Below, in pieces: positions 2,993-45,613 of a stretch of 64,000 nt of DNA. The stretch lies in assembly GCA_964544295.1 (NCBI GenBank), contig CAZJBJ010000002.1:11494-75493 (forward strand), read 5' to 3'. The stretch comes from an uncultured Bifidobacteriaceae bacterium. GTDB lineage: Bacteria > Actinomycetota > Acidimicrobiia > IMCC26256 > JAENVU01. The stretch's first letter is position 1. Each line of letters starts with the position of its first letter. The position numbers and the translations under genes are program-made. The notes beneath the pieces are model-generated. The model searched no databases. It was not told the origin of the DNA and was given only the letters and a program-made list of their open reading frames with translations.

Positions 2993-3910
2993 ATGGACGT
3001 CTTGCGGACCCCCGACGAACGCTTCGCCGATCTCGAGGACTATGACTTCGTACCGCACTACCGCGAGGTGACCGCGGCGGACGGCACCCGGCTGCGGTTC
3101 CACTTCGTCGACGAGGGACCGCGCGACTCGGCACCCGTGCTCCTGCTCCACGGGAACCCGACGTGGTCGTATCTCCACCGTCACATGATCCGTGGATTGG
3201 TGGTGCGCGGCCATCGGGTCGTCGCCCTCGATCTCATGGGCATGGGCCGCTCGGACAAACCGACGGAACGATCCGCGTACACACTCGCGACGCACGTGGA
3301 CTGGATGAGCCAGTGGTTGGCCGCCGAGGACCTCACGGACATCACCCTCTACTGCCAGGACTGGGGCGGCCTCACCGGCCTGCACCTGCTCCCCCGCTTC
3401 CCCGACCGGTTCGCGCGCGTCATCGCGTCGAACACCGGTCTGCCCACGGGGGAAGGCGCGAACGCCTTCATGGAGCAGTGGCTGGAATTCAGCCAGAGTG
3501 TCGATGAGCTGCCGATCAGCGCACTGGTGGCCAACGGCACCACGCGTGCGCTCACCCCCGGCGAACGGGCCGCGTACGACGCACCCTTTCCCGACGGGAC
3601 CTACCAGACGAGCCCGATCCACTTCCCGATGCTGATCCCGATCCAGCCCGACAACCCCGGCGTCCCGATGTGCGAGGCGACCTGGGCGTTCCTCGGGACC
3701 TGGACCAAGCCGTTCCTCACCGTGTTCGGATCCGAGGATCCGGTGTCGTACAAGCCCGGCGCGCACCGGAAGTTCCAGCGCGTCGTTCCGGGCGCGGCCG
3801 ACCAGGACCACCAGGTCATCGACGGCGCCAACCACTTCATCCAGGAAGAAATCCCTGACCGACTCGTCGAGATCATCGACGCCTTCACCCACCAAGGACA
3901 TTCCGCATGA
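2993..3910 (+). CDS. Haloalkane dehalogenase (HLD-I, DhlA/DhmA-like alpha/beta hydrolase)
   Basis: HGNPTWSYLHRHMI, nucleophile motif CQDWGG, and the C-terminal GANHFIQEE histidine. ATG at 2993, 5 nt after the upstream stop. Confidence 0.85.
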   Translation: MDVLRTPDERFADLEDYDFVPHYREVTAADGTRLRFHFVDEGPRDSAPVLLLHGNPTWSYLHRHMIRGLVVRGHRVVALDLMGMGRSDKPTERSAYTLATHVDWMSQWLAAEDLTDITLYCQDWGGLTGLHLLPRFPDRFARVIASNTGLPTGEGANAFMEQWLEFSQSVDELPISALVANGTTRALTPGERAAYDAPFPDGTYQTSPIHFPMLIPIQPDNPGVPMCEATWAFLGTWTKPFLTVFGSEDPVSYKPGAHRKFQRVVPGAADQDHQVIDGANHFIQEEIPDRLVEIIDAFTHQGHSA

Positions 3911-5525: not shown

Positions 5526-6325
5526 GTCGGGCACGGCTGCGCTCCCGGTGCGTCGTCGGTCAGGGAATCGTGCGGCAACGGGATCCGGCGACCACCACTC
5601 GGCTCGGCGACCACCGCGACGCCGCCGCTCGTCGGCACCCGATTGGCCGCGGCCGCGACCCCGAGGAACTCGTCCGCGCGGCGGAATGGCGCCATCGCCT
5701 CGAGGCAGCGACGGGTCGGCAGGATCAGTTCGACCGTCCCGCGATCCGCGTCGGCCAGGGTGTCGGCGGGTCGTCGCCAGGCGGACGCGACGAGCTCGGT
5801 CCGGTCGTGCTCGTACGCGCCGGCGGGCGCCGCCGCCGCGAAGAACCACGTGTCGTAGCGACGAGGACTCCCAGGCGGGGTGACCCAGTGGGAGAAGACG
5901 TGCAGTTGGTCCACGCACAGCATCAGGTCGTGCTCGTCGACGAATGTCGCGAAGCTCAGCTGGCCCTCATTGAGTTCCTGGCGGGCGCTGACGAACGCAG
6001 CCGCGCTCGCGTCGACGGGCTCACCGCCGCGCCGTTGGGCCAGCAGGACTCCCACCTCTTCGAACGTCTCGCGGATCGCCCCCGCCCAGAACCCTAGTCC
6101 GCCGCGGCGCAGGCCCAGCGCATCGCTCGCCGTCGCGTCGTCGCGCCCGAGACACCGCGCCTCCCAGCGGAGATCACGATCGTCGGGATCGATGGCTCCC
6201 CCGGGAAAGACCGACGCGCCGGCGATCCACATCGAGTCGACGTTGCGGCGGCCGAGGAACACGTGCAGGTCGGGCGCGTCGCGCACGAGCATGACCGTGG
6301 CGGCGTCCTTGGGGATCAGCACCAT
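5522..6325 (-). CDS. NUDIX family hydrolase
   Basis: Nudix box GGAIDPDD...AIRETFEEVGVLL. ATG at 6325 (MVLIPKD...). The stop overlaps the MBL start (ATGA). Confidence 0.8.
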   Translation of the reverse strand: MVLIPKDAATVMLVRDAPDLHVFLGRRNVDSMWIAGASVFPGGAIDPDDRDLRWEARCLGRDDATASDALGLRRGGLGFWAGAIRETFEEVGVLLAQRRGGEPVDASAAAFVSARQELNEGQLSFATFVDEHDLMLCVDQLHVFSHWVTPPGSPRRYDTWFFAAAAPAGAYEHDRTELVASAWRRPADTLADADRGTVELILPTRRCLEAMAPFRRADEFLGVAAAANRVPTSGGVAVVAEPSGGRRIPLPHDSLTDDAPGAQPCPT

Positions 6326-6404
6326 CGCCGCTCGGTCCGTTCGATCACCCGGCCAGCCTAGGACCGGTGCGAGGCTCGGGCGTCGGCCGCGTACGCTCGG
6401 CCCG

Positions 6405-7724
6405 ATGGATCCCCGGCGCGCCCTCCCTTCGGTCGAACGGGTCCAACGCGCACTCGACGGGCTCCCGAGCGCGCTCCTCACCGCGGCGGCCCGCGATGCC
6501 GTCGACGCGGCGCGCGCGGCGATCGCCGACGGCGCCACACCCACCGAAGCGGACGTCCTGGCCGATGCGACGGCACGCGTCGCCGATCAGCGTCGGCGGC
6601 TCCTGCAACCCGTGATCAACGCGACGGGCGTGCTGCTCCACACCAACCTCGGGCGGGCGCCGATCGGCGAGGAAGCGTTGGCCGCCGCGCTCGCCATCGG
6701 TGGCGGAGCATCGAACCTCGAGCTGAACCTCACGACCGGCACGCGCGGGTCCCGGCATGATCACGCCGGCGCGCTGCTCGCGCGCGCCGTCGGCGCCGAG
6801 GCCGGCATGGTCGTCAACAACAACGCAGCGGCGGTGTTGCTCACGCTCGGCGCGTTGGCGCGGGGACACGAGGTCGTCGTCTCGCGCGGCGAACTCGTCG
6901 AGATCGGCGGCGGATTTCGCGTGCCGGAGATCATGGCCGAGTCCGGGTGCGCGCTGATCGAGGTGGGGACGACCAACCGCACGCGTGTCGCCGACTACGA
7001 ACGCGCGGTGACCGAGTCGACCGCACTCCTCCTGAAGGTGCACGCGTCGAACTACCGGATGGTCGGCTTCACCGAGGCCACGCCGGTGCACGCGCTCGCC
7101 GGGTTGGGTCCGACGGTCATGGTGGACGCCGGGTCCGGACTCCTCGACGAGACCACCCCCTGGCTGCCCGCGCGGCCCGCGTGGTTGCGCGACGAACCCG
7201 GGATCCGCCAGGCGATCGCCGACGGCGCCGGGGTCGTCACCTTCTCCGGCGACAAGCTGCTCGGCGGTCCCCAGGCCGGCATCATCGTCGGCCGCGCCGA
7301 TCTCCTCGCCACGATCGCCAAGCATCCACTCGCCCGCGCGATGCGTGCCGACAAGCTCACGCTCGCCGCGCTCCAACAGGTCGCGCTCATCTACCTCTCC
7401 GGCGACGCGACCGCGATCCCGCTGTGGCGGATGGCCACCGCCGACGTCGCGTCGTTGCGAACCCGGGCCGAACGCATGGTGACGACGGCGCCGGGGGCGG
7501 CCATCGTGGACACCGAGGCCGTCGCCGGTGGCGGATCACTGCCGGGCTTGACCATTCCGTCGCTCGGGGTGCGGTGTGCAGTCGCCCGGGTCGACGACGC
7601 GATGCGTGAACTCCGGGCAGCCGGGATCATCGCCCGCGCCGATGGCGACGGCGTCCTGTGCGACCTCCGCAGCGTCGACCCCACGGACGACGACATCGTC
7701 GCCCGTGCCCTCGCCGATCTCTGA
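6405..7724 (+). CDS. selA: L-seryl-tRNA(Sec) selenium transferase
   Basis: VINATGVLLHTNLGRAP, SNLELNL..G.RGSR, and the PLP-lysine region FSGDKLLGGPQAGII. In-frame ATG at 6405. Confidence 0.9.
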   Translation: MDPRRALPSVERVQRALDGLPSALLTAAARDAVDAARAAIADGATPTEADVLADATARVADQRRRLLQPVINATGVLLHTNLGRAPIGEEALAAALAIGGGASNLELNLTTGTRGSRHDHAGALLARAVGAEAGMVVNNNAAAVLLTLGALARGHEVVVSRGELVEIGGGFRVPEIMAESGCALIEVGTTNRTRVADYERAVTESTALLLKVHASNYRMVGFTEATPVHALAGLGPTVMVDAGSGLLDETTPWLPARPAWLRDEPGIRQAIADGAGVVTFSGDKLLGGPQAGIIVGRADLLATIAKHPLARAMRADKLTLAALQQVALIYLSGDATAIPLWRMATADVASLRTRAERMVTTAPGAAIVDTEAVAGGGSLPGLTIPSLGVRCAVARVDDAMRELRAAGIIARADGDGVLCDLRSVDPTDDDIVARALADL

Positions 7725-9502
7725 TGCGGGTCGTCGCCACCGCCGGCCACGTCGACCACGGCAAGTCGACCCTCGTCCACGTCCTCACCGGCACCGATCC
7801 CGATCGCTTCCCCGAGGAGAAGTCGCGAGGTCTGACCATCGACCTCGGGTTCGCGTTCGCGACGCTGCCCTCGGGCGCGGAGGTCGGATTCGTCGATGTT
7901 CCCGGACACACGAAGTTCATCAAGAACATGCTCGCGGGCGTCGGGGCCGTCGACGTCGCGATGCTCGTGGTCGCGGCGAACGAGGGCTGGAAGCCCCAGA
8001 GTGAGGAGCACCTGCGGATCCTCGATCTGCTGGACATTCGCCACGGCATCGTGGTGATCACCAAGTCCGATCTCGTCGACGCGGAGACGCTCGAGATCGC
8101 CCACCTCGAGGTGGGCGAGCACGTCGACGGGACGACGCTGGCCGAGTTCGAGGTCGTCACGTGCGCCGCGTCGCGCGGTGAGGGGCTCGACGACGTGCGG
8201 GCCGCGCTCGATCGTGCGCTGGCCGCCGCGCCCGGCGCGCGCGACGTCGGCCGGCCGCGGCTCTGGGTCGATCGGGTGTTCGCGGCCAAGGGTGCGGGCA
8301 CCGTGGTCACCGGCACGTTGACCGGTGGCCACCTCCAGGCGGACGACGACGTTCTCGTCGCCGGTCATCGGGTGCGCATCCGCGGGATCGAGAGCCACGG
8401 CCGTCCCGGTGGTGTCGGCGATCCTGGTGCGCGGGTGGCGCTCAACCTCGTCGGCGTCGATCGCGATGCGATCACCCGGGGCGACGCCGTCGTACGCCCG
8501 GATCAGTGGGAGCACGTCACGGTCGTGGACGTTGCCCTCCGGCTCACGCCCGGCACCGAACTCCGCACTCGGGGTCGGCTCACCGCGGCGGTCGGTTCCG
8601 GCGAACACCGGGTCTGGTTCCGCCGCCTGGGCGACGCGTGGGCGCGCATCCGGTTCGACGAGCCCGTACCGTTGGCGCCCGGCGACCGGATCGTGCTGCG
8701 GGATTCCGGCTCCCGCGCGACCGTCGCCGGCGCCGAAGTCCTCGACATCACCCCACCCCGCAAGGTCGGCGATGCGTCCGCGCGTCTGGATCGACCGCTC
8801 GCGGATCGACTGCTCGACGCGGGTTGGCTGCCCCGGCAGGGGCTCGACGCCCGCACCGGGCTGGCCCCGGACACCGCGGTCGCGCTTCTCGTCGGGGCCG
8901 GCGCGGCGCCGGTCGGCGACTGGCTCGTGCACCCGGTCGCGTTGCAGCAGGCCCGCCTGGACGCGCTCGCCCGCGTCCAGGCCCGCCACGACGAGCACCC
9001 CGACGCGCCCGGGTATCCCACCACCGAGCTCGCGGCGGCGATCGGTCTCGATCTCGATCGACTCCAGGCGCTGCTCACCGGCGACGCCGACCTCGTCGTC
9101 GATCAGGGGTTCGTCCGCCACCGCGAGCACGCGGGCCGGCCGTCGACCTCCGCGGCGGGCATCGCGCTGATCGCCGAGCTCGACGCGCAACCGTTCGCGC
9201 CGCCGACCCCGACCGACCAGGCGCTGACCCGCGCGCTGGTGCGCGAGGGTGCGCTGACCGACATCGACGGAGTCGTGTTCAGTACCGCGGCGATCGCATC
9301 GGCACGCGACCTGATCGTCGACGCGCTGCGGACCCGGGGATCACTCACCGTCGCCGACGCGCGCGACGTGCTGGGGTCGACGCGCAAGTACGTGGTGCCG
9401 ATCATGAGTCATCTCGACGCGACCGGCGTGACCCGCCGGCGCGGTGACGACCGGATCCCGGGGCCGCGCTCGGGCCTCGTCGACCGAGCGGACGGGGGCT
9501 GA
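7724..9502 (+). CDS. selB: Selenocysteine-specific translation elongation factor
   Basis: G-domain AGHVDHGKSTL, DVPGH, TKSD, plus long C-terminal winged-helix repeats. The ATG overlaps the selA stop (TGATG). Confidence 0.92.
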   Translation: MRVVATAGHVDHGKSTLVHVLTGTDPDRFPEEKSRGLTIDLGFAFATLPSGAEVGFVDVPGHTKFIKNMLAGVGAVDVAMLVVAANEGWKPQSEEHLRILDLLDIRHGIVVITKSDLVDAETLEIAHLEVGEHVDGTTLAEFEVVTCAASRGEGLDDVRAALDRALAAAPGARDVGRPRLWVDRVFAAKGAGTVVTGTLTGGHLQADDDVLVAGHRVRIRGIESHGRPGGVGDPGARVALNLVGVDRDAITRGDAVVRPDQWEHVTVVDVALRLTPGTELRTRGRLTAAVGSGEHRVWFRRLGDAWARIRFDEPVPLAPGDRIVLRDSGSRATVAGAEVLDITPPRKVGDASARLDRPLADRLLDAGWLPRQGLDARTGLAPDTAVALLVGAGAAPVGDWLVHPVALQQARLDALARVQARHDEHPDAPGYPTTELAAAIGLDLDRLQALLTGDADLVVDQGFVRHREHAGRPSTSAAGIALIAELDAQPFAPPTPTDQALTRALVREGALTDIDGVVFSTAAIASARDLIVDALRTRGSLTVADARDVLGSTRKYVVPIMSHLDATGVTRRRGDDRIPGPRSGLVDRADGG

Positions 9503-13917: not shown

Positions 13918-13995
13918 CGGGATGTGGCGCAGTTTGGTTAGCGCGCAGCGTTCGGGACGCTGAGGCCCCGGGTTCAAATCCCGGCATCCCGACCA
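13918..13995 (+). tRNA. tRNA-Pro (anticodon CGG), CCA encoded
   Basis: Cloverleaf folded by hand: acceptor CGGGATG/CATCCCG, D stem GCGC/GCGC, anticodon stem CAGCG/CGCTG with loop TTCGGGA, T arm CCGGG-TTCAAAT-CCCGG, discriminator A, then CCA. Confidence 0.9.
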
Positions 13996-15279: not shown

Positions 15280-15719
15280 CCGAGCCGCTGCAGTTGTCGT
15301 ACGAAGTCGATTGCGCGGCCGACCACGCCTTCGAGGTCTGGACCTCACGTATCAGCGTGTGGTGGCCCCTGGACCACACGATGAGCGGGGATCCGGACGC
15401 GATCGTGCTCGAGGGCCAGGTCGGCGGGCGCATCTTCGAACGGGCTCGCGACGGCACCGAGCACGCGTGGGGCGTCGTCACCGACTGGGACCCGCCTCGC
15501 GGGCTCACGTTCACGTGGCACCTGGGACGCCCTGCCGACGAGGCCACCGAAGTCGCAGTGCGCTTCCTCAGTGAGGAGGACACGCACACGATTGTCACGA
15601 TCGAGCATCGGGGTTGGGAGCGGCTCGCGAAGCTCGGCGACGTGCGCGAGCGGACGCGCGACAACTGGGGATCCGTCGTCGGCCGCTTTGCCGACGCGAT
15701 ACGAAGCGAAGGGACCTGA
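15276..15719 (+). CDS. SRPBCC/AHSA1-domain protein
   Basis: The GTG at 15276 overlaps the ArsR stop (GTGA). The ArsR + SRPBCC pairing is common. Motifs W..W...HT and WHLGRP..E.T.V.V.F. Confidence 0.7.
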   Translation: MTEPLQLSYEVDCAADHAFEVWTSRISVWWPLDHTMSGDPDAIVLEGQVGGRIFERARDGTEHAWGVVTDWDPPRGLTFTWHLGRPADEATEVAVRFLSEEDTHTIVTIEHRGWERLAKLGDVRERTRDNWGSVVGRFADAIRSEGT

Positions 15720-16127
15720 ATGATGAACGGTGCGGGAACGAAGGACGATCCGTGGCGTCTCACGACGCCACCCGGGTCGTCGGCATACACGATGTACCGC
15801 GACGAGGATGCGGATCCACCAGCCCTGGTGTGTCAGGTAGGCAGCACGAAGCTGACCTATCACCTTCAGGCGATCGAGGACCTTCACGCGTGGCTGGTGG
15901 AGCAACGCGACTGGGTGCCGCTCGGCGCCGCCGACGAGCAGAAACCCGCGGCCGATGGCACCGTTGAAGCATGGGGCCGATCTGCGTCGAATCCGGTGCA
16001 CGGGTGGTACGGCCTGAAGAAGGGCTATCGCGGTCGCTTCGGCATGTACCTGCCGCCGCTCCTCGAAGCGCTCGGCCTCGCAGAACTCACCCACGAGAAG
16101 CGCAACAACCAGATGCGAGCGAAGTAG
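15720..16127 (+). CDS. Conserved hypothetical protein (actinobacterial DUF family)
   Basis: 135-aa ORF starting directly after the previous stop. KDDPW..TPPG.S.YTMYRD and GRFGMYLPPLLEALGLAE look like a conserved family that I cannot name with certainty. Confidence 0.55.
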   Translation: MMNGAGTKDDPWRLTTPPGSSAYTMYRDEDADPPALVCQVGSTKLTYHLQAIEDLHAWLVEQRDWVPLGAADEQKPAADGTVEAWGRSASNPVHGWYGLKKGYRGRFGMYLPPLLEALGLAELTHEKRNNQMRAK

Positions 16128-16140
16128 GAGGCGAACGACG

Positions 16141-16455
16141 ATGACGAATGCGATCGTGGTGCGCTACCGCACCACCTCAGAAGCGGCGGACGAGAACCTC
16201 CAGGCTGTGCGTGACGTCTACGAGGAGCTCGCCTCGCACCGGCCCGATGGATTTCACTACCTGACGCTCCAACTTGAGGATGGCGTCTCGTTCGTCCATA
16301 TCGCGATCCACGACGACGACGTCGAGAACCCCCTCTCCGAAAGCGGTGCGTTCGCGCGGTTCCAAGCCGGACTTGCCGACCGCGTCGTCGAGGGTCCCGA
16401 ACCGAGCAGGGGCAGCGTGGTCGGCTCCTACGCCTTCGGGTTGGGCGACCAGTAG
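16141..16455 (+). CDS. Small ABM/Dabb-like (antibiotic biosynthesis monooxygenase-like) protein
   Basis: 104 aa with a beta-alpha-beta-like pattern. Weak assignment by eye. Confidence 0.4.
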   Translation: MTNAIVVRYRTTSEAADENLQAVRDVYEELASHRPDGFHYLTLQLEDGVSFVHIAIHDDDVENPLSESGAFARFQAGLADRVVEGPEPSRGSVVGSYAFGLGDQ

Positions 16456-16490
16456 CACGAACTCAGCGAGCGAACCGCTCACGACGCTGG

Positions 16491-17063
16491 TCAGGTTCGC
16501 CGACTGTCCGGTGGACTCCCGTCGCGATCGTCATTTTCGAAGTCGGTTGCCTCCGGGGCGGATCGGGCCGACGGCCGTTCGAGTCGCATGACGAGGCACC
16601 GGTCACCGTCGAACTCACGCTCGCCGTCGGGCACGAAACCCACTCGGGCGTAGAAGGCGATCGCCCGGTGGTTGGTCACCAGTGGGTCGATCATCACGAC
16701 GCGGGCGCGGTGCAGTTCGAAGATGCGGCCGAGGGCCGCTTCCATCACGGCGGTTCCGAGGCCGCGCCCGCGATCGGACGGCGACCCGATCCAGATGTCG
16801 ATCGCCCACGTGCCCGATCCGACCTCGCCCCAATAGTGCGACTCGTCGTTGAGGGCGTCGATGAGCTGCACGAAGCCGATCGGTCGACCGTCTTCGGTGG
16901 CGATGAGCAGCTCCCGCCACGGAACGGCTCGAGCGAGTTCGGTCGGCCAGTCGTACCAGTCAATGCCACGCCCACCCAATGCCGCCGCGACGTCAGGATC
17001 GTCGTCCCACTCCGCGATCAAGCCGACGTCATCGATGCGCATCAGTCGCAACTCGACCATCAC
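16491..17063 (-). CDS. GNAT family N-acetyltransferase (aminoglycoside 6'-N-acetyltransferase-like)
   Basis: Acetyl-CoA motif RGRGLGTAVMEAAL and NHRAIAFYARVGF. Confidence 0.8.
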   Translation of the reverse strand: MMVELRLMRIDDVGLIAEWDDDPDVAAALGGRGIDWYDWPTELARAVPWRELLIATEDGRPIGFVQLIDALNDESHYWGEVGSGTWAIDIWIGSPSDRGRGLGTAVMEAALGRIFELHRARVVMIDPLVTNHRAIAFYARVGFVPDGEREFDGDRCLVMRLERPSARSAPEATDFENDDRDGSPPDSRRT

Positions 17064-17164
17064 CCCAGGGTACGCGGACCCCGGAGATTGGACCCATCGA
17101 CATCGACGCTCAATCCGCCGTACCCCTAGCCTTGAGCTCCACGCCGACGGGCCGAGGAGATGGC

Positions 17165-17461
17165 ATGGCGACGCTGCACATCGAGCATCCGATCACCGAT
17201 CTCGACACCTGGCTCGGTGCCTTCAACACCTTTGCCGACGCCCGCGCGAACGCCGGAGTCCGGTCACAGCGCGTCCGTCAACCGGTCGATGATCCGTGCT
17301 ACATCGTCGTCGACCTGGAGTTCGACGATCCCGATGCGGCCCACGGTTTCAAGGAGTTCCTGGAGGGCGTCGTCTGGCAGTCCCAGGACCTGTCACCGGG
17401 GCTCGACGGCGTCCCGACGGCGCGTGTGCTCGACGACGTCGATCCCGACAACGGGCCGTAG
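17165..17461 (+). CDS. Small hypothetical protein
   Basis: In-frame ATG at 17165 (MATLHIEHPITDLDTW...), 98 aa, coding-like composition. Confidence 0.4.
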   Translation: MATLHIEHPITDLDTWLGAFNTFADARANAGVRSQRVRQPVDDPCYIVVDLEFDDPDAAHGFKEFLEGVVWQSQDLSPGLDGVPTARVLDDVDPDNGP

Positions 17462-17565
17462 AGCACCGACGCCGTCGCACTCACGTGCGACCGGAGTGGT
17501 CCTCAGCCTTGCCGCGCTCGGCTCGTAGCCGAATCAGTCCCGCCGCGGCTTCCTACGATGGTCCA

Positions 17566-18222
17566 GTGCGCAGATTCGACCTCGTGATCTTCGATTGCGA
17601 CGGAGTGCTCGTCGACAGCGAGCGGCTGATCGTGAAGCTCGAAGCCCAGATCTGTCAGGAACGAGGGTGGCCGTTGACGGAGGACGATGTCATCCGCGAG
17701 TTCGTCGGTCTCTCGGATCACGCCATGCGTGCACGGCTCTCCGAGTTGGTGGGCGAGAAACTGACTGAGGACTGGGACGCCGAATACGCAGACCGGTACC
17801 AGAAGGCACTCGCGGAGGATGTCGAGGCGGTCTCCGGAGTCGCGGCCGCCATTGATGCCATCGAGCGCGCGGGTCTCGTCACCTGCGTGGCGTCGAGTGG
17901 CAGTCATCAGAAGATGGCGCTCACGCTCGGCAGGACCGGCATGCTTTCCAGGTTCAACGGACGGATCTTCAGCTCGAGCGACTCGGAGGTCGCGCGAGGC
18001 AAACCTGCCCCGGATTTGTTCCTGCACGCCGCCGCGTCCATGGGCGTCGAACCCAGCCGATGCGCGGTCGTCGAGGACAGCCCCTTCGGTCTCGTCGCAG
18101 CACTTGACGCCGGCATGAGCCCGTTCGGCTTCTCCGGCAGCGTGATGCCGGCCCACCGGCTCGCGATCGACGGCGTGACGATGTTCGAAGCGATGGCCGA
18201 CCTTCCCGGGCTCGTCATCTGA
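17566..18222 (+). CDS. HAD-superfamily hydrolase (subfamily IA, phosphatase/beta-phosphoglucomutase-like)
   Basis: Motif I DLVIFDCDGVLVDSE, motif II VASSG, motif III KPAPD, motif IV VEDS. GTG at 17566. Confidence 0.8.
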   Translation: MRRFDLVIFDCDGVLVDSERLIVKLEAQICQERGWPLTEDDVIREFVGLSDHAMRARLSELVGEKLTEDWDAEYADRYQKALAEDVEAVSGVAAAIDAIERAGLVTCVASSGSHQKMALTLGRTGMLSRFNGRIFSSSDSEVARGKPAPDLFLHAAASMGVEPSRCAVVEDSPFGLVAALDAGMSPFGFSGSVMPAHRLAIDGVTMFEAMADLPGLVI

Positions 18223-18434
18223 TAGTGAACGAACACAGCCGTGAGGGAGTGGGTACGCCGTCCTGGACGGTATGGCGCCAGCACCGATTGAGTCTCGGGC
18301 GGCAGCGATCCCAGCTCCGGGCGAGGTCACGTGCGGTGTATCGACTCGTGGTCGCCTCCCGTGACGGGCCGCATTCGTCAGGAGCAGCGCAGCGAGCACC
18401 GCTCGGTCGACCCCGGGCGCGGTTCGACCGGGTC

Positions 18435-19058
18435 TCAGATCGGACCGTCTCGGACGGAAGAGGGAGGAACGTGACTCGGAATCGCAACCGCGGTGGTGCG
18501 AGGAGTCAGCAGCGTGAGCAGGCCGCCGATCACGGCGAGCGATCCACCGATGATGCACAGGTAGACGCCGGCCGCCGGGGAATGCTGCACGATCTTGTCT
18601 CGAATCTGGTCGAGCACGCTCGAACCGGACGGCTCGCGGATCGTCACCAGCGCGCCCAGTCCCAGCAGTAGTGCTGCGGCGCCGCTTGCAAGCACTGCGA
18701 GCGCGAACACGCGAAGGTACGGCACGAGCGTGAGAAGGACCGCGACCGTCATGAACGACGCGACGCCGATCAGGAACCCCTGGCCGTCTCCCGACAGCGA
18801 CCCCGAACTACCGAAGGTGAGATTCAGGCCCGAGCCTCCCGAACCGAGGTTCAGCCGCACGGGTGAGCTCGTATTCACCCACGCGGTCAGACTCGACGTG
18901 ATCAGGAAGCAGGCTGCAGCGACCACGAACGCGCAAGCGACGAGTCGGCCCGCATGCAGGTGGCCACGCGTCGTCCTGCCTTCCACAACGCCGATCCTAC
19001 GGAGAGGATGTGCACCGCTCGGGGACCGCCGGGACCGCCGATCACGGAACGGTGCCAT
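18435..19058 (-). CDS. Hypothetical integral membrane protein
   Basis: Four hydrophobic segments separated by a Gly/Ser-rich loop. The start is uncertain. Confidence 0.45.
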   Translation of the reverse strand: MAPFRDRRSRRSPSGAHPLRRIGVVEGRTTRGHLHAGRLVACAFVVAAACFLITSSLTAWVNTSSPVRLNLGSGGSGLNLTFGSSGSLSGDGQGFLIGVASFMTVAVLLTLVPYLRVFALAVLASGAAALLLGLGALVTIREPSGSSVLDQIRDKIVQHSPAAGVYLCIIGGSLAVIGGLLTLLTPRTTAVAIPSHVPPSSVRDGPI

Positions 19059-19116
19059 GGGCTGGGCAATGCTTGAGGTTGACGACCTGGTGTTCCAGCG
19101 ACTTCAGCCGGCGGAT

Positions 19117-20013
19117 TCAGCGAGTGGCATTGGCCTCGGCCGCGCTTTTGAGGAACCGGCCACGCTCAACGATCAGTCTGTGGAGGTATCGAGCGAGGAT
19201 CAGTCGCTCGACGACATCACCGATCGGGCCGAGCGGGGCGTCGAATCGGAGTCGGTCCACCATCTCGGTGCCCGCACCGGTCTCACGGAACTGGTGGACG
19301 TGGCGAAACCGCCGGAAGGGCCCTCTGACCTGTTCATCCACGAACCGGTGCGGTCGATCGAGCTCGGTGACTCGGCTCGTCATCGTGAACGGGACGCCGA
19401 AGTGGGTTGCCCGCCAGGTGACTTCTTCGCCGAGCCCGATCGTTCCGGTCGTCACACCGCGAATCGCTCGCTCGCCCGACGCGGCCATCGACTCGAGATG
19501 CGCGTCGATGTCCAGCGACAGGTCGAAGACCGTTGCCACCGGTGCGCCGATCTCGGTGACGGACTCGAACTCCACAGTCACCGCTCCATCATGCACGAAG
19601 GGGCACATGACCGCGCGAAGGGACCACCTCAGGCAGCCGGACAACAGGTCGTCGTCTCCGACGACCGAGACCGACGGGCGGAGCACGACGAGATGGCGCG
19701 GGCGCGCCGTGCGGTTGCGGAGCCACGCCACGACGTCGAGTCCGAAGATGTTGTCCTGCACGACGGTGGTGAACCCGGCGTCGCAGTATTGGTCCGCGAC
19801 GGACCCGGAGAGTTGGTAGCGGAGGTCCAACAGCCGGCGAGCTTCGAGAGGATCGCTGGGGTCACCAGCATGCACCCAGCCACGGACCACCGACCGGTAG
19901 AACGCGCCGCCGCGCACGTGCACGCCTCGCTCGAACCGACTCGCCAGGAGCTCCGCGATCGTGGACTTCCCAGCAGCTTGTGCTCCGGTGACGAGCCATA
20001 CCGATCCGGACAT
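19117..20013 (-). CDS. In-frame fusion: truncated P-loop (AAA/shikimate-kinase-like) phosphotransferase N-part + complete SRPBCC (cyclase/dehydrase-like) C-part
   Basis: MSGSVWLVTGAQAAGKSTIAELL (Walker A) ... HLVVLRP, then with no stop codon ...VMCPFVHDGAVTVEFES..IGAPVATVFDL... (SRPBCC). An internal ATG at 19608 could express the SRPBCC part alone. Confidence 0.6.
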   Translation of the reverse strand: MSGSVWLVTGAQAAGKSTIAELLASRFERGVHVRGGAFYRSVVRGWVHAGDPSDPLEARRLLDLRYQLSGSVADQYCDAGFTTVVQDNIFGLDVVAWLRNRTARPRHLVVLRPSVSVVGDDDLLSGCLRWSLRAVMCPFVHDGAVTVEFESVTEIGAPVATVFDLSLDIDAHLESMAASGERAIRGVTTGTIGLGEEVTWRATHFGVPFTMTSRVTELDRPHRFVDEQVRGPFRRFRHVHQFRETGAGTEMVDRLRFDAPLGPIGDVVERLILARYLHRLIVERGRFLKSAAEANATR

Positions 20014-20815
20014 GGCCACAGTGTCGTTGATCCGATGGGCGCAGGCAGGTGCCATTCCGCAGGCTTCCCCGACCGCAGGGGGTGGACTCTGGTGGAAACC
20101 GGCTCGGCGCGCGGCGCAGCCCTCCGACGAGAATGGCCCGGTGGACGCCCGGGCTGAGCTGCTGACCGCGATCAGGCGCGCCCGTAATCGCCTGCCTGCA
20201 CCGGCCGAAAATGTCGCTCGCGCGCCCGGAGACTTCGAGCACATCTCGTTGCCAGCAAGCGACGGGGACGTTCTGCGCGACCTTCTCCTCGCCGACGGCG
20301 CTCGCGTGGTCATCGAGATCGGCCTCGCGTACGCAAGCTCAGCTCTCGCCATTGCCGAAGCACTGGTCGCGGGAGGGACGGATGATGCTTCGCACGTGAT
20401 CATCGACGCGTTCCAGGACCACTTCGACGACACCGGATGGGACACGCTCGTCGCAGCAGGCCTCGGCTCCGTCTGTTCCCTGCACCGCGAACGCTCGCAG
20501 CTGGTGTTGCCCCGCCTCATCACCGAAGGCGCCGTCGCCGACGCGGCGTTTGTCGACGGCAGTCACGTCTTCCACAATGTCTTCGTCGACCTGGCGTTTC
20601 TTCGAGAACTGGTACGGCCCGGCGGTCTCGTGATTCTCGACGACTGCGACTGGCCATCGGTCGACACCGCGGCTCGGTACTTCGAAGTCAACGCCGGCTG
20701 GGAACGCGTTCCGATGCACACTCCGACCCGGCTGCGCGCGTATCGGATGCCCGATCCCCCCATCGACCCGGACTTCCAAGATTTCACGCCGTTCGATTCC
20801 CTATCCACCAACTGA
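20012..20815 (+). CDS. Class I SAM-dependent O-methyltransferase (Methyltransf_24-like)
   Basis: VVIEIGLAYASSALAIAEAL, FVDGSH, PGGLVILDD. The start is ambiguous between the ATG at 20012 and the in-frame GTG at 20141. The first 43 codons look less protein-like. Confidence 0.7.
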   Translation: MATVSLIRWAQAGAIPQASPTAGGGLWWKPARRAAQPSDENGPVDARAELLTAIRRARNRLPAPAENVARAPGDFEHISLPASDGDVLRDLLLADGARVVIEIGLAYASSALAIAEALVAGGTDDASHVIIDAFQDHFDDTGWDTLVAAGLGSVCSLHRERSQLVLPRLITEGAVADAAFVDGSHVFHNVFVDLAFLRELVRPGGLVILDDCDWPSVDTAARYFEVNAGWERVPMHTPTRLRAYRMPDPPIDPDFQDFTPFDSLSTN

Positions 20816-20818
20816 CGG

Positions 20819-21313
20819 ATGCAACGCGAAGCCCGGTTCGAGAGCGCGGCGCTTCCGTATCGTTGTCGACCAATGGTGCGCGACTTTCGATCGAGCGACC
20901 AGCAGGAGCTTCGCTCGCTGATCCTCGACGGCCTCCGGGAACGGTGGGGCGAAGCATTCGACGCGACCCACAATGCTGACGTCGACGACTTCGTGACGAA
21001 CTATCTCGACCGCGGCGCCGAGATCGTCGTCGTCGAGTCCGACCGCTCGATCGTCGCCACCGGGACGCTGGTCCCGCGCCGCGATCGAGTTGGCGAGATC
21101 GTCCGCATGTCGGTCGCGGCCACCCACCGTCGTCAAGGGTTGGCCCGCCGCGTCATCACCGAACTGATCGAACGAGCGAGTCGTCGGAACATGGCGGAGA
21201 TCACCGTGCTCACCGACACACCGTGGACGAGCGCCGTCTCGCTGTACCGGGCCTGCGGTTTCGTCGAGGTCGGACACGACGAAACCGACACCCATTTCGT
21301 CATGCGGCTCTGA
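20819..21313 (+). CDS. GNAT family N-acetyltransferase
   Basis: RRQGLARRVITELIERA and SAVSLYRACGF. An alternative start at the ATG at 20873 is possible. Confidence 0.8.
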   Translation: MQREARFESAALPYRCRPMVRDFRSSDQQELRSLILDGLRERWGEAFDATHNADVDDFVTNYLDRGAEIVVVESDRSIVATGTLVPRRDRVGEIVRMSVAATHRRQGLARRVITELIERASRRNMAEITVLTDTPWTSAVSLYRACGFVEVGHDETDTHFVMRL

Positions 21314-21358
21314 GGGCGTCGCTGCTCGCTCGCTGTCGGGCACGGGTAGTTTTCTCGC

Positions 21359-21375
21359 CCTACTACTGGTAGGAT
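21359..21375 (+). promoter_or_regulatory. Inverted repeat CCTAC-tactg-GTAGG overlapping a -10-like TAGGAT that ends 6 nt before the mazE ATG (possible leaderless, autoregulated TA promoter)
   Basis: Read from the sequence. No Shine-Dalgarno motif is visible before the ATG at 21382. Confidence 0.35.
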
Positions 21376-21381
21376 GGCGGT

Positions 21382-21600
21382 ATGAAGCTCAGCGTGAGTC
21401 TGCCCGCGGAGGATGTCGAGTACCTCGACGCCTACACCAAGAGTCAAGGCCTCGATTCCCGGTCCGCCGCGTTGGTGAAGGCCGTGCGCCTCCTGCGCGC
21501 CTCCGAACTGGGTGCGGAGTACGAAGCCGCGTGGACCGAATGGGCCCGAAGCGAGGACTCCGCATCGTGGGACGAAGCGACTGCTGACGGACTCTCCTGA
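21382..21600 (+). CDS. mazE: Ribbon-helix-helix (CopG/MazE-type) antitoxin
   Basis: 72 aa with N-terminal MKLSVSLPAEDVEYLD (RHH beta strand). The stop overlaps the toxin start (TGATG). Confidence 0.8.
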   Translation: MKLSVSLPAEDVEYLDAYTKSQGLDSRSAALVKAVRLLRASELGAEYEAAWTEWARSEDSASWDEATADGLS

Positions 21601-41456: not shown

Positions 41457-43268
41457 CTACCCTTTGTAGAGAGCCTCGATCTCGCGTTCGTACTTGGCGT
41501 GGATGCCGCGTCGCTTGAGCTTGCTCGTCGGGGTGAGCTCCTCGGAATCGGGCATCCATTCCTGATGGAGGACGCGCACCTTCTTCACCCGCTCGGCGTT
41601 GTTGAAGGGCGCCATCGCCTCGGCCACCTGCCGATCGACCTCGGCGAGCACCTCCGGGTGTTCGGCAAGGGCCGCGAGATCGGCGGCGTCGATGTCGTGC
41701 CCCTTCGCCCAGACCGGGGCCACCTCCGCGTCGAGCACCACGAGCGCGCTCATGAACGGGCGCTGGTCACCGATCACACAGGCTTGCCCGATGAGTAGCT
41801 GTGCCTTCAGGGCGGATTCGAGGTTGGCCGGCGATATGTTCTTCCCGCCCGCGGTGATGATGAGTTCCTTCTTGCGGTCGACGATCGTGAGGTACCCGTC
41901 GTCGTCCAGGACCCCGATGTCACCCGAGTGCAACCAGCCGTCGGCGTCCAGCGCCTCGGCGGTCTTCTCCGGATCGTCGAGGTACCCGCGGAACACCTGA
42001 CCGCCGCGGGTGAGGACCTCACCGTCCTCGGCCAGCGCGATGGTGCCGCCCGGCACCGCCCGGCCGACCGTGCCGGCCCGCACCGCGAAGGGGTCCCAGG
42101 TCATGATCCCGCTCGTCTCGCTCATGCCGTAGACCTCCGAAAGCGGTACGCCGAGACCGCGGAAGAAGTCGAAGATCTCGACGGAGATCGGCGCCGCCCC
42201 GCTGATCGCGGCGACGCACGCGTCCAATCCGAGCAGACCGCGGACCATGCCGAGCGCCTCGTCCGCCACTGCGAACTCCGCAGCCAGATCGGTGGGGAGT
42301 TCCTCGCCCTGCGCGCGGCACCTTGCGGCCCGCAGTCCGACCTCCAGCGCCGCCTCGAGCTGGGCCTTGCGCGCGGGGTCGGCGCCGGCCATGGCCATCA
42401 CCCCCGCGTGGATCTTCTCCCAGACACGCGGCACCGCGAAGAACACCTGGGGCCGGACCTCGGGAAGGTACTGCGCCACCGCGCCGGGTTCCGGACACGT
42501 CGTGACTTCGTAGCCGTAGGTCAGCGCGAGGTAGTGCGAGACGTTGCGCTCGGCGATGTGCGCCATCGGCAGATAGGACACGAGTCGCGCCCGCTCGAGG
42601 TCGACGTCACCCAGCACTTCCCACAGTGACTTCATCGTCCAGGCCACGTTCGCGTGGTCGATCATCACCCCCTTGGGCGGTCCGGTCGTCCCCGAGGTGT
42701 AGATGACCGTCGCGAGATCCGATGGCTGCGCGATCCGCGCCAACGTGTCGAGATCCTCGGGATCCGCAGCCAGCAGCTCGGACCACGCCCGGATGCCGTC
42801 AGGAACGCCGGCCGACGGTGGGTCGATGACCACGACCTCACGGAGGCCGGGGAGTTCGTCCCGCACCGCCACCACACGACCGAGGAAGCCCTCGTCCTCG
42901 ACGATCGCGATGGTCGCGCCACAGTGACCGCTGAGGTACCGGATCTGGTCGGCCGATGACGAGTTGTAGATCGAGATCGGCGTGGCACCGAGGAGCACGA
43001 CCGCCATGTCGGCGACGTGGAACTCGGGCCGATTGCGGATCATCAGGACCACACGGTCACCGCGCGTGACGCCCAGACCGCGGAGACCGGCCGCGAGCCG
43101 ACAGGCCTGGTCGGCGTACTCACCGAAGGTCGTTTCCTGCCACCCGTCGCCGGCCTTCCAGCGCAGCGCCACCTGGCCCGCGCGCGCCGCGACCGTGTCC
43201 CGGAACAGCGTCGCCACGGTCTGACCGGCGGTCGCGTCCGCGATCTGCTCATCCGTCCACTCGGTCAC
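41457..43268 (-). CDS. Long-chain fatty-acid--CoA ligase (AMP-dependent synthetase)
   Basis: VIYTSGTTGPPKGV, SGDIG..DDDGYLTIVDRKKE, GKNISP. I chose the GTG at 43268. The upstream 90 in-frame codons have low GC3. Confidence 0.85.
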   Translation of the reverse strand: MTEWTDEQIADATAGQTVATLFRDTVAARAGQVALRWKAGDGWQETTFGEYADQACRLAAGLRGLGVTRGDRVVLMIRNRPEFHVADMAVVLLGATPISIYNSSSADQIRYLSGHCGATIAIVEDEGFLGRVVAVRDELPGLREVVVIDPPSAGVPDGIRAWSELLAADPEDLDTLARIAQPSDLATVIYTSGTTGPPKGVMIDHANVAWTMKSLWEVLGDVDLERARLVSYLPMAHIAERNVSHYLALTYGYEVTTCPEPGAVAQYLPEVRPQVFFAVPRVWEKIHAGVMAMAGADPARKAQLEAALEVGLRAARCRAQGEELPTDLAAEFAVADEALGMVRGLLGLDACVAAISGAAPISVEIFDFFRGLGVPLSEVYGMSETSGIMTWDPFAVRAGTVGRAVPGGTIALAEDGEVLTRGGQVFRGYLDDPEKTAEALDADGWLHSGDIGVLDDDGYLTIVDRKKELIITAGGKNISPANLESALKAQLLIGQACVIGDQRPFMSALVVLDAEVAPVWAKGHDIDAADLAALAEHPEVLAEVDRQVAEAMAPFNNAERVKKVRVLHQEWMPDSEELTPTSKLKRRGIHAKYEREIEALYKG

Positions 43269-43342
43269 CGGCAGCTCCCCTGTCGTGTTTCCCCTGATGA
43301 GGGCCCAATTGGTAGCCGACGCGGCGCCGGTCGGGCCACACG

Positions 43343-43407
43343 GTCCCCACCTGGTTGGGGACAACTCGACCGACGTTGGGGACAACCCCGCGGCGCCTGG
43401 GGACAAC
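43343..43407. repeat. GTCCCCA/TGGGGAC palindrome followed by three direct TGGGGACAAC repeats spaced exactly 21 bp apart (43356, 43377, 43398)
   Basis: Read directly from the sequence. The reverse complement GTTGTCCCCA is a 1-mismatch version of the actinobacterial DnaA box TTGTCCACA. Confidence 0.85.
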
Positions 43408-43530
43408 CGGAGCAGCCGATCCCGTGTGTCTGCGAGCCCAGAAACTGGGAGGCGACGGAGCGTGGCCGGGTCAGTCCCCGGGACACGATCCACAAGCCCA
43501 TCCCCAGGCGCCGGGCTGATTTCCCCAGCG

Positions 43531-43539
43531 TTATCCACA
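43531..43539 (+). promoter_or_regulatory. Perfect E. coli-type DnaA box TTATCCACA
   Basis: Exact 9-mer in the same 310-bp intergenic region. A further near-box cGATCCACA lies at 43486-43494. Confidence 0.5.
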
Positions 43540-43578
43540 GGGAAGGCGGTCAGAAGTCGCCGGGCGTCGCCTCGGCGG

Positions 43579-44715
43579 TCACTCGTCGTGGTCGTGCGCG
43601 TCGAGCTCGCCGATCACGGTGTCGGTGTCCGCGCCCAACGACCGCCCCGCCCAACGGACCTCGCCGGGTGTCTCCGAGAACCGGGCGATCAGCCCGGGCA
43701 TGATCACGCCGTCGACGTCGACGAGCGAGCCGCGCTCCACCACGTGGGGGTCGCGGGCGACTTCGGCGACCGAGTACACCGGGGCGATCGCCGCGTGGGC
43801 CGCCTCGAACCCTGCGATCACCTCCTCGGCACTGCGCCGACCAACCCACTCCGCCACGATCGCGTTCAACTCGTCCCGATGGTCGACGCGATCGGCGAAG
43901 GTCGCGAAGCGCGCGTCGTCGCCGACGCCGAGCAGGTCCAGTAACCGTGACGCCACGGACTCGGCGGAGGCGGAGATCGCCACCCACCGGCCGTCGGCAC
44001 ATCGGTAGGTCCCGCGGGGCACCGAGTACGGGATCCCACTGCCGAGACGAGGTTGTTCGTAACCGAGATGGGCCGACGCGCTGTGCAGCGGACCCATCAG
44101 CGAGAGCATCGTGTCGAGCAGGTTCACGTCGATCACCTGGCCGACACCGGTCCGATCCCGATGCCGGAGCGCGGCGAGGATCGCGAATGCGCCGACGATC
44201 GCGGTGACCTCGTCGGTCAACGCGATCGGCGGCGGCAGCGGCGCACCGTCGGGCTCCCCGTTGATCGCCGCAAAACCACTCATCGCCTCGGCCGTGGTCG
44301 CGAATCCGGGTCGTTGGGAGTACGGACCGGTCTGACCGAACCCGGTGACCCGCAGGATGACGAGACCCGGGTTGGCGGCAAGCAGGTCGGACGGATCGAG
44401 GCCCAGGCGTTCGAGCGCTCCCGGCCGCAGGTTCTCGATCAGCACGTCGGCGTCGCGCACGAGCGCATGCATGTGTGCGAGTCCGGTCTCGGATTTGAGG
44501 TCGAGCACGACGGCACGCTTGCCCCGAGCGACGAGCTTCCACATGTACGAGTCGCCGTCGTTCGGATCGACCCAGCCGAGGCGGCGGGTGCCGTCACCCC
44601 CGGGAGCTTCGACCTTGACGACGTCCGCTCCGAAATCGGCGAGGTAGCGAGCCGCGCCCGGCGCGGCGATGACGGTGGCCATGTCGATGACCCGGATGCC
44701 CTCGAGCGCCTGCAC
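43579..44715 (-). CDS. CaiB/BaiF family (class III) CoA-transferase
   Basis: LEGIRVIDMATVIAAPGAARYLADFGADVVKVE. The GTG at 44715 avoids an 80-nt overlap with surE. Confidence 0.8.
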   Translation of the reverse strand: MQALEGIRVIDMATVIAAPGAARYLADFGADVVKVEAPGGDGTRRLGWVDPNDGDSYMWKLVARGKRAVVLDLKSETGLAHMHALVRDADVLIENLRPGALERLGLDPSDLLAANPGLVILRVTGFGQTGPYSQRPGFATTAEAMSGFAAINGEPDGAPLPPPIALTDEVTAIVGAFAILAALRHRDRTGVGQVIDVNLLDTMLSLMGPLHSASAHLGYEQPRLGSGIPYSVPRGTYRCADGRWVAISASAESVASRLLDLLGVGDDARFATFADRVDHRDELNAIVAEWVGRRSAEEVIAGFEAAHAAIAPVYSVAEVARDPHVVERGSLVDVDGVIMPGLIARFSETPGEVRWAGRSLGADTDTVIGELDAHDHDE

Positions 44716-44734
44716 CCGATTCAGGATAGAGACG

Positions 44735-45613
44735 TCACGACGGGCCGGCCGGACGGTGGAGGCTGCCCAGGGCGTCGGCGTCGGGCACGGTGTGGGTCGG
44801 CTCGAGTGGTGCACCCGGCATCACCGCCTGTCCGACCGGCACGGTGGCGGTGCGGTCGGCGGCACCACCCGGCCAGGCCTCGGTGATACCGACCAGTGTC
44901 GTGAGCGTTACGAACCCAGCCCGCACGAGACCCGTGTCGGTATCGGGATCGAAACTCACCTGTGCGAGCCGGAGCTCCGCGGCGACGCGACGCGAGCGGC
45001 CGCCCATCGCGTCGGCGTCGGTGCCGGTCAGCACCATACGAACTTCACCGAACGGCGCCAGGCGCGCCCAGCGCAGCCCGCGCACCTCGCCGGACGGCCG
45101 CGCGGGGACGTTCAGATTCAGCACCGACCGCCGCGGTGCGCGGATCAGCAGTTCGACCGCTTCCAGCGCGAACCCGGTTGCGGTCTCCCAGTGCCACGGA
45201 TCACTGGACTGGAGGCTGACGGCCAGCGCCGACAGCCCCAGGTTCTGAGCCGCGAGCGCCGCACCGACGGTGCCCGAGTACAAGACGGCCCGGCCCGTGT
45301 TCAGACCGGCGTTGATCCCCGAAACCACGAGGTCCGGCGGCGGGCCGAATGCGCCGAGATTCGCGGCCATCACGCACATGGCCGGGGTGGCATCGAGGGC
45401 CCACGCCTCGATCCCGTCGTCGTCGGCAAAGTGCACCTGGTGCGCCACGAGGCCGTCGGCCGCGAGCGCGCCGAGCGACGCGGCAGTGCCGCTGCGGTCC
45501 CGGTCAGGCGCGACGAGCACCACCTCGAACCGGGGATCGCGAGCCAGCGCCCGGGCCATGGAGTGGATGCCGACCGCCTCGGCACCGTCGTCGTTGGTCA
45601 CCAGCACTCGCAT
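44735..45613 (-). CDS. surE: 5'/3'-nucleotidase SurE (with a C-terminal extension of about 40 aa)
   Basis: MRVLVTNDDG, SGINAGLN, YSGTVGAA. Confidence 0.85.
   Translation of the reverse strand: MRVLVTNDDGAEAVGIHSMARALARDPRFEVVLVAPDRDRSGTAASLGALAADGLVAHQVHFADDDGIEAWALDATPAMCVMAANLGAFGPPPDLVVSGINAGLNTGRAVLYSGTVGAALAAQNLGLSALAVSLQSSDPWHWETATGFALEAVELLIRAPRRSVLNLNVPARPSGEVRGLRWARLAPFGEVRMVLTGTDADAMGGRSRRVAAELRLAQVSFDPDTDTGLVRAGFVTLTTLVGITEAWPGGAADRTATVPVGQAVMPGAPLEPTHTVPDADALGSLHRPAGPS

Follow-up and report, generated by a model that had tools for sequence, protein, structure and literature searches.

The 64-kb stretch of contig CAZJBJ010000002.1 analysed here (the window) carries a gene for a CaiB-like family III CoA-transferase followed by one for a fadD-like long-chain acyl-CoA ligase, and the intergenic region between them is the subject of this report. 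As noted in a preliminary description of this DNA, the gap is long and both flanking genes lie on the minus strand, the stop codon of the first being at 43579 and the start codon of the second at 43268, which leaves 310 bp. The GC content of the gap (69.7%) matches that of the surroundings. It contains eight short repeats that we predict to be clustered binding sites for DnaA (DnaA boxes) lying outside a replication origin, a reading which we consider probable. The genes and elements of the locus are listed below in the direction of transcription, distances being counted from the start of the fadD-like gene.

43579-44814, minus strand: CaiB-like family III CoA-transferase gene (PF02515, CoA_transf_3), upstream of the cluster; the coordinates are those of the longest open reading frame (ORF), and the true start is possibly further in
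43269-43578, minus strand: intergenic region of 310 bp separating the stop codon of the CoA-transferase gene from the fadD-like start, with the whole cluster inside
43531-43539, plus strand: DnaA box TTATCCACA at -271; perfect E. coli/Bacillus-type consensus, outer box of pair 1
43519-43527, plus strand: box ATTTCCCCA at -259; same orientation, 3 bp from the TTATCCACA box
43498-43506, plus strand: box CCATCCCCA at -238; first of pair 2
43486-43494, plus strand: box CGATCCACA at -226; same orientation, 3 bp from the CCATCCCCA box
43436-43464, unstranded: box-free central element GCCCAGAAACTGGGAGGCGACGGAGCGTG of 29 bp, midway between the arrays; contains the small palindrome CCCAG-AAA-CTGGG
43398-43406, minus strand: box TTGTCCCCA at -138; first of a trio spaced by 21 bp and opposed to the upstream array
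43377-43385, minus strand: box TTGTCCCCA at -117
43356-43364, minus strand: box TTGTCCCCA at -96
43341-43349, plus strand: box CGGTCCCCA at -81; inverted relative to the -96 box with a 6-bp spacer, and kept in relatives L001, L004 and L005
43308-43316, minus strand: GCTACCAAT motif (in relatives GCTACSAAT), some 40 nt before the fadD-like start codon
41457-43268, minus strand: fadD-like long-chain acyl-CoA ligase gene (603 aa; PF00501 and PF23562, AMP-binding), downstream of the cluster

Architecture, clustering and conservation of the boxes

The repeats are 9-mers of the form nnnTCC(A/C)CA, belonging to the family TTGTCC(A/C)CA, and are arranged in two opposed arrays (43486-43539 and 43341-43406) with some 80 bp devoid of boxes between them. 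The first array has four boxes facing one way, in two pairs with 3-bp gaps; the second has three boxes facing the opposite way (43356-43406, 21 bp apart) and then one inverted box (43341-49). Read in the direction of transcription, pair 1 (TGTGGATAA-3 bp-TGGGGAAAT) is separated by a 12-bp spacer from pair 2 (TGGGGATGG-3 bp-TGTGGATCG), and beyond the box-free stretch come the three copies of TTGTCCCCA and, 6 bp on, the inverted TGGGGACCG. Approximately 25 bp past the latter is the GCTACSAAT motif, which is followed by a GGGGAG ribosome-binding site before the start codon. Within the upstream array the two CCACA boxes are on the outside, with two CCCCA boxes between them. One of the eight boxes, which together span 199 bp, is perfect, three have a single mismatch and four retain the TCC[AC]CA core.

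All of the motifs previously reported for this gap proved to be at their positions. GTCCCCA (43343-49) opposes TGGGGAC (43356-62) across a 6-nt spacer, and TGGGGACAAC recurs at 43356, 43377 and 43398 with an exact spacing of 21 bp and has no other exact copy in the 64 kb. The further motifs ATCCCCAGG (43500-08) and TTCCCCAG (43521-28) were confirmed, as were ATCCCCA (43500-06) and TTCCCCA (43521-27). The same is true of GTCCCCGGGAC (43474-84), although this motif is not kept in other species and probably lies outside the array.

The signal is one of local clustering and not of base composition. All four matches to TT[GA]TCC[AC]CA in the window fall within 43356-43539, and eight of its 45 TCC[AC]CA core hexamers lie inside 200 bp, whereas Markov simulations (n=200) never produced more than four core hexamers in that span; chance is therefore rejected as the origin of the repeats. 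Over the whole window, boxes with no more than one mismatch from TTRTCCACA number seven, against 8.1 expected, and four of the seven are in the gap. The possibility, raised at the outset, that the motif might occur elsewhere at a similar density and thus be an artefact does not hold within the 64 kb, where the density peaks in the gap.

For comparison we used the window and 12 other related genomes in which the order CoA-transferase, gap, fadD-like gene is present, the latter as loci of 5-14 kb. This order, with a long gap, was found in every close relative fetched, and the syntenic orthologous gaps measure 216-389 bp. The identity of each FadD-like protein to that of the window and the number of core boxes in the gap are as follows.

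Window: FadD identity not applicable, 8 core boxes
L001: FadD identity 97%, 8 core boxes
L004: FadD identity 87%, 8 core boxes
L005: FadD identity 84%, 8 core boxes
L006: FadD identity 81%, 8 core boxes
L007: FadD identity 79%, 10 core boxes
L208: FadD identity 76%, 4 core boxes
L128: FadD identity 75%, 11 core boxes
L209: FadD identity 74%, 10 core boxes
L129: FadD identity 71%, 3 core boxes
L210: FadD identity 70%, 2 core boxes
L211: FadD identity 67%, 3 core boxes
L131: FadD identity 62%, 4 core boxes

The orthologous gaps of all 12 other genomes thus carry boxes (2-11 each), as the preliminary description had asked of a genuine site, while homologues with a FadD identity of 61% or less and no CoA-transferase neighbour have none or one. 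Nearly all core hexamers of each locus are found within the gap. The distances of the boxes from the start codon are identical in the window, L001, L004 and L005, with -271, -259, -238 and -226 in one orientation, -138, -117 and -96 in the other, and -81 inverted. In L004 and L005 all 48 of the 48 core bases are unchanged, versus 51-54% identity for the other bases between the outermost boxes, a pattern that reads as a clean phylogenetic footprint of eight short, predicted protein-binding sites. An unbiased count of hexamers in the orthologous gaps of 12 species ranked TCCCCA first (54 observed versus 0.7 expected), and TCCACA is among the four most enriched (25 versus 0.7, in 12 of 12 species). 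The 21-bp phasing originally stressed is real in the species of the window but was partly overstated as a general feature, for L128 and L209 fill the same stretch with boxes at 11-12-bp spacing.

Two elements other than the boxes are also conserved. The central GCCCAGAAACTGGGAGGCGACGGAGCGTG element is nearly invariant in the window, L001, L004 and L005 and absent in L006, L007 and L128; an architectural protein may bind there, or the element may be a second promoter. GCTACSAAT is kept in nearly all syntenic relatives, even distant ones with few DnaA boxes, and the corresponding ATTCGTA/TACGAAT is enriched in the orthologous gaps, being present in eight of 12 species. We infer that the GCTACCAAT motif of the window is a candidate -10, promoter or leader element of the fadD-like gene, which would put the CGGTCCCCA box just upstream of a putative -35 region. 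A scan of 43000-43900 for consensus elements, tuned to a low-GC consensus and hence of little weight, found no sigma-70-type promoter and no intrinsic terminator.

DnaA as the predicted binding protein and rival readings

High-affinity DnaA boxes have the sequence TTGTCCACA in Streptomyces and Mycobacterium and TTATCCACA in E. coli and Bacillus (PMC4285127). The 9-mer consensus TTGTCC(A/C)CA agrees with the DnaA box at 8-9 of nine positions, and a perfect TTATCCACA or TTGTCCACA occupies conserved positions in five species. At -271, for example, the window has TTATCCACA, L004, L005 and L128 have TTGTCCACA, and L006 and L007 have TCGTCCCCA, while the -138 box, TTGTCCCCA in the window, is the canonical TTGTCCACA at the aligned position in L006. 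More generally, the CCCCA and CCACA forms, and likewise the prefixes TTA, TTG and TCG, interchange at aligned positions. Boxes paired in the same orientation start 11-12 bp apart (2-3-bp gaps) in all of the species; runs of six or seven such boxes at this spacing occur in L128 and L209. Chromatin immunoprecipitation sequencing (ChIP-seq) has revealed that E. coli DnaA favours pairs of boxes 2 or 3 bp apart (PMC11317965), and since the gaps seen here match that preference, the pair geometry is compatible with cooperative binding of DnaA.

A genome collection was scanned for three TGTCCCCA boxes with variable gaps, a pattern that is too permissive towards tandem repeats. At least 120 matches were obtained, and those listed are mostly unrelated tandem repeats from many phyla. 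The only one among them that adjoins dnaA, in an Amycolatopsis metagenome-assembled genome (MAG; L121), served as a positive control. Its dnaA-dnaN gap (6507-7252) has 17 core boxes, nine CCCCA and eight CCACA, with 11-bp spacing and in both orientations. Because the two forms are mixed in this gap, CCCCA boxes would appear to be a normal component of an actinomycete origin, where DnaA is predicted to bind them. The earlier suggestion that the cluster of the window is a secondary site for titration of DnaA or for regulation by it is thus supported by the conservation of the boxes, their exchange, the 2-3-bp spacing, the mixture found in the L121 origin and the enrichment of the hexamers.

Several points weigh against this reading. 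The identity of the binding protein is deduced from sequence alone. The high-affinity boxes in Table 1 of PMC4285127 have A at position 7, except in the atypical Thermotoga, and most boxes of the gap have C there. Our origin comparison comes from Amycolatopsis and not from the dnaA-dnaN region of a member of the Acidimicrobiia, and a literature search found no paper on DnaA boxes in that class. The clusters of Bacillus and Streptomyces that act on replication are origin-proximal (PMC2533591, PMC3245932), and the searchable literature holds no precedent for DnaA being linked to a fatty-acyl-CoA ligase. Lastly, the promoter call depends on GCTACSAAT, which is unlike a textbook -10 hexamer.

It is conceivable, if unlikely, that the array is a multi-site operator in which another transcription factor, binding tandem asymmetric monomer sites, controls the fadD-like gene, the likeness to DnaA boxes being coincidental. 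An OmpR/PhoB-type response regulator (MtrA-like), a SARP or an AraC-type regulator would be candidates. The boxes keep fixed distances from the fadD-like start and lie directly upstream of it, and winged-helix response regulators and AraC-type proteins, too, typically have direct repeats spaced by 11 and 21-22 bp. The enriched motif includes the following G (CTGGGGA, CTGTGGA), a position outside the classical DnaA box. The mycobacterial MtrA site GTCACAGCG (PMC4285127) is loosely like GTCC(A/C)CAGG, but the match requires a deletion of 1 nt. An operator of this kind would leave to coincidence the agreement with the DnaA box and the perfect boxes at conserved positions described above, as well as the same mixture of boxes in a genuine dnaA-dnaN origin; moreover, the synteny block has no conserved regulator gene, the sole conserved candidate being a GGDEF protein.

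That the cluster is the chromosomal origin of this clade of Acidimicrobiia, set apart from dnaA, or else a second origin that depends on DnaA, is highly unlikely. The preliminary description had remarked on the resemblance to oriC, and as regards the array of boxes this stands: two opposed DnaA-box arrays extend over about 200 bp, matching in scale and layout the part of E. coli oriC where DnaA oligomerises, and L128 and L209 possess 10-11 boxes at 11-12-bp spacing. As had been stated, there is no dnaA nearby; tblastn with E. coli DnaA gave no match in the 64-kb window, and hence an origin adjacent to dnaA cannot be shown on this contig. No dnaA is present in any of the orthologous loci fetched. 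What the resemblance lacks, in the window and the orthologous loci examined for origin signatures, is an unwinding element, a skew switch and diverging genes. The most AT-rich 30-mer of the gap is 47% AT, against a 99th percentile of 50% for the window, and no run of trinucleotide repeats (DnaA-trios) flanks the outer boxes. Cumulative GC skew is lowest near 44-48 kb, but this shallow minimum is due to gene orientation; once corrected for coding strand (effect -0.020 +/- 0.007), the skew changes across the site by 0.006 +/- 0.008. The genes on either side point towards the site, with 19 plus and eight minus on the left and three plus and seven minus on the right, which is the opposite of the pattern at an origin. 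The Pfam annotations of 40 window ORFs include no replication genes and none of those usual in origin regions, but instead genes of acyl-CoA and propionate metabolism (propionyl-CoA carboxylase, methylmalonyl-CoA epimerase-like and mutase-like proteins, 3-hydroxyacyl-CoA dehydrogenase and thiolase), in addition to a GGDEF protein. The cluster is much smaller than the origin in Amycolatopsis, where 17 boxes extend over 750 bp, and distant syntenic relatives with only 2-4 boxes have too few for an origin.

That the inverted TGGGGA/TCCCCA layout specifies a structured RNA, be it a leader or an attenuator belonging to the fadD-like mRNA or a site at which a read-through transcript is processed, is extremely improbable. 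There is an inverted repeat of 31 nt (43373-43403 with 43501-43531, 81% complementary), which arises because the same motif sits in both orientations, and the fold has a z-score of -3.3 on the plus strand and -1.9 on the minus strand, so that the better fold is on the strand that is not transcribed. Rfam searches of the gap and of the whole window gave no relevant match, and the consensus structure of seven species reaches only -29 kcal/mol, with an alifold covariation term of -1.25. Paired columns within boxes are invariant and those outside are often broken; complementarity past the boxes is limited to the window and its 97% relative (L001). In other relatives the number and spacing of the boxes are altered on one side only (four versus seven in L128), which destroys a common hairpin.

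Two remaining candidates, a coding repeat (21 bp being seven codons) and an iteron-type origin of a plasmid or mobile element, were rejected, the former as the plus-strand ORF at 43355-43519 has low GC3 by inspection and the minus-strand ORF of 78 aa loses its ATG in L004, the latter as there is no rep gene and chromosomal synteny extends across the 12 other genomes; similarity to plasmids is confined to a 130-bp stretch inside the CoA-transferase gene.

Neighbouring genes and other features

The top protein matches of the window are to MAGs of the Acidimicrobiia. The longest ORF of the fadD-like gene (41457-43538, minus strand) extends 270 nt upstream past the conserved start codon and covers most of the cluster, and some homologues in the databases are 20-30 residues longer than others (P0011, 625 aa; P0025, 632 aa). 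Gene callers may at times stretch the gene across the cluster and so hide the array. The CoA-transferase of L004 ends in three tandem 15-bp copies of cgaccccgatcacca (3620-3668), apparently an Asp/His-rich tail, and that of the window has a shorter ...DAHDHDE tail (43579-43600), from which it follows that relatives vary in the length of this C-terminal tail.

In the more distant syntenic relatives an element of about 75 nt, absent from the window, is situated between the CoA-transferase gene and the DnaA boxes (L208:5715-5795, L209:105-185, L211:5755-5840, L129:2215-2292, L131:1188-1270). Its sequence is ACGCCCCGAGGAG..GG(C/A)GTAGAGAAC..variable hairpin..GGCCCCAACG..CTCCTCGGGACG. The outer stem is long, and the inner hairpin has altered in sequence with its pairing retained. 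In L211 the stop codon of the CoA-transferase is the TAG within GTAGAGA of this element. A search of Rfam with it gave no match, and it may be an undescribed RNA or a protein-binding inverted repeat.

Among the matches of the genome-collection scan, tandem arrays with TGTCCCCA, often as the near-palindrome GGGG(A/T/C)C-TGTCCCCA, occur in L009, L016, L020, L038, L040, L045, L046, L057, L064, L072, L082, L117 and others. The arrays belong to Planctomycetota, Verrucomicrobiota, Kiritimatiellia, Coriobacteriia, Bacteroidota and Acidobacteriota and have periods of 14-39 bp, several of them 21 bp; Collinsella genomes have a common 33-bp unit, CACTCATGTAAGTCTGTCCCCAATGAGTGAAAA. One array, in the Acidimicrobiales MAG L040, consists of three copies of GTTGGGGACAGGCCCCGAAGC in perfect 21-bp tandem, and was set aside as a plain repeat in a stretch of lower GC between unrelated ORFs, with no evident relation to the cluster.

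Elsewhere in the window, the sole tRNA gene is a tRNA-Pro (anticodon CGG; 13918-13995). It is followed by about 6 kb (15300-21500) at 66% GC with nearly no clear coding frame by the GC3 criterion, which could be an integrated element or a region of atypical codon usage. Genes for SelA (selenocysteine synthase) and SelB (the selenocysteine-specific elongation factor) are adjacent at 5859-9502; searches of the window with ARAGORN and with Rfam turned up no tRNA-Sec.

Known clusters and proposed role

The predicted cluster falls in a class already known, that of DnaA-box clusters outside oriC, and extends a known theme. Clusters of this class with a part in titrating DnaA and in regulating nearby genes are on record for B. 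subtilis and Streptomyces (PMC2533591, PMC3245932). B. subtilis has DnaA-box clusters (DBCs) outside oriC to which DnaA binds stably; they regulate the adjacent genes sda, ywlC and yydA and jointly restrain initiation (PMC2533591, PMC3245932). They resemble the present cluster in being intergenic and dense in consensus and one-mismatch boxes, local density rather than any single site defining both. A cluster in Streptomyces coelicolor is described in PMC3245932, citing Smulczyk-Krawczyszyn 2006, as regulating replication; it is a non-origin cluster, as ours probably is, and shares with it the TTGTCCACA-type box family and a host among the Actinomycetota. The DBCs are bound by DnaA, which for the array upstream of the fadD-like gene is a prediction, and the effective ones are origin-proximal, as is, by the account in PMC3245932, the S. 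coelicolor cluster, which has been tested in vivo. The neighbours of the B. subtilis DBCs are linked to the cell cycle, whereas here the neighbour is the gene of a metabolic enzyme in a high-GC, uncultured member of the Acidimicrobiia, and the boxes are mostly of the CCCCA variant.

The E. coli loci datA, DARS1 and DARS2, which modulate the pool of DnaA-ATP and DnaA-ADP, are similarly non-coding, a few hundred bp in length and equipped with opposed boxes, and they are far from dnaA (PMC4585315). Both datA and DARS2 need sites for IHF or Fis and have a specific box geometry (PMC4585315). Unlike the present cluster, which would lie at the fadD-like promoter, none of these loci is in the promoter region of a metabolic gene. 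In Pseudomonas aeruginosa, oriCII is an origin-like DnaA-box cluster through which the adjacent gidAB-parAB promoter is under DnaA-dependent control (PMC13438810). This is likewise an origin-like cluster beside a promoter, in our case a putative one, but it lies in the origin region beside cell-cycle genes, while ours is set among genes of acyl-CoA metabolism. With the DnaA-oligomerisation regions of oriC in E. coli and L121 the cluster shares two opposed arrays, 11-12-bp spacing and a combination of strong and weak boxes, and with L121 also the CCCCA/CCACA composition; it differs from them in having fewer boxes and no unwinding element, dnaA or dnaN neighbour, or switch in skew or gene orientation.

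The following model builds on what the sequences show, namely the motifs, how they cluster and are selectively conserved, and how closely they resemble genuine origin boxes; the binding of DnaA, its cooperativity and any effect on replication or transcription are predicted in it. DnaA would first fill the consensus CCACA boxes, namely TTATCCACA and also CGATCCACA, in which the CCACA core is kept, and would then spread cooperatively, probably in its ATP-bound form, to the adjacent weaker CCCCA boxes. The CCACA boxes would serve as anchors, the TTATCCACA box at 43531-39 being likely the high-affinity one, and the CCCCA boxes as weaker sites filled by cooperation. Two oppositely directed DnaA oligomers would form some 80 bp apart. 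Loaded in this way, the cluster would sequester at least eight molecules of DnaA away from oriC, and since the last boxes abut the putative -35 of the fadD-like promoter, expression of the ligase may depend on their occupancy, which would tie its transcription to the level of active DnaA with an effect in either direction. Most likely, then, the cluster titrates DnaA, modulates the fadD-like promoter, or does both. It is quite unlikely to be a working DnaA-dependent origin, displaced or second, or a datA/DARS-like control locus at which DnaA, by also occupying the fadD-like promoter, would couple fatty-acid catabolism with initiation timing. The small sets of boxes in distant relatives (a pair and one further box) suggest that promoter control may have been the ancestral role and that the array was expanded later, in the clade of the window.

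Few ways are known in which bacteria that lack the SeqA and Hda systems of E. coli restrain initiation; non-origin clusters of DnaA boxes are among them, and work on these has been confined to a handful of cultured species. The present one has been unusually well footprinted by evolution, with boxes at identical positions, spacers of about 50% identity, an origin-like layout in two arrays and between two and 11 boxes among relatives. The data suggest that TTGTCCCCA is a regular working variant of the DnaA box in high-GC Actinomycetota, which is relevant to the prediction of origins in these bacteria. Should it be true that DnaA controls the acyl-CoA ligase, lipid catabolism would be linked to the replication cycle.

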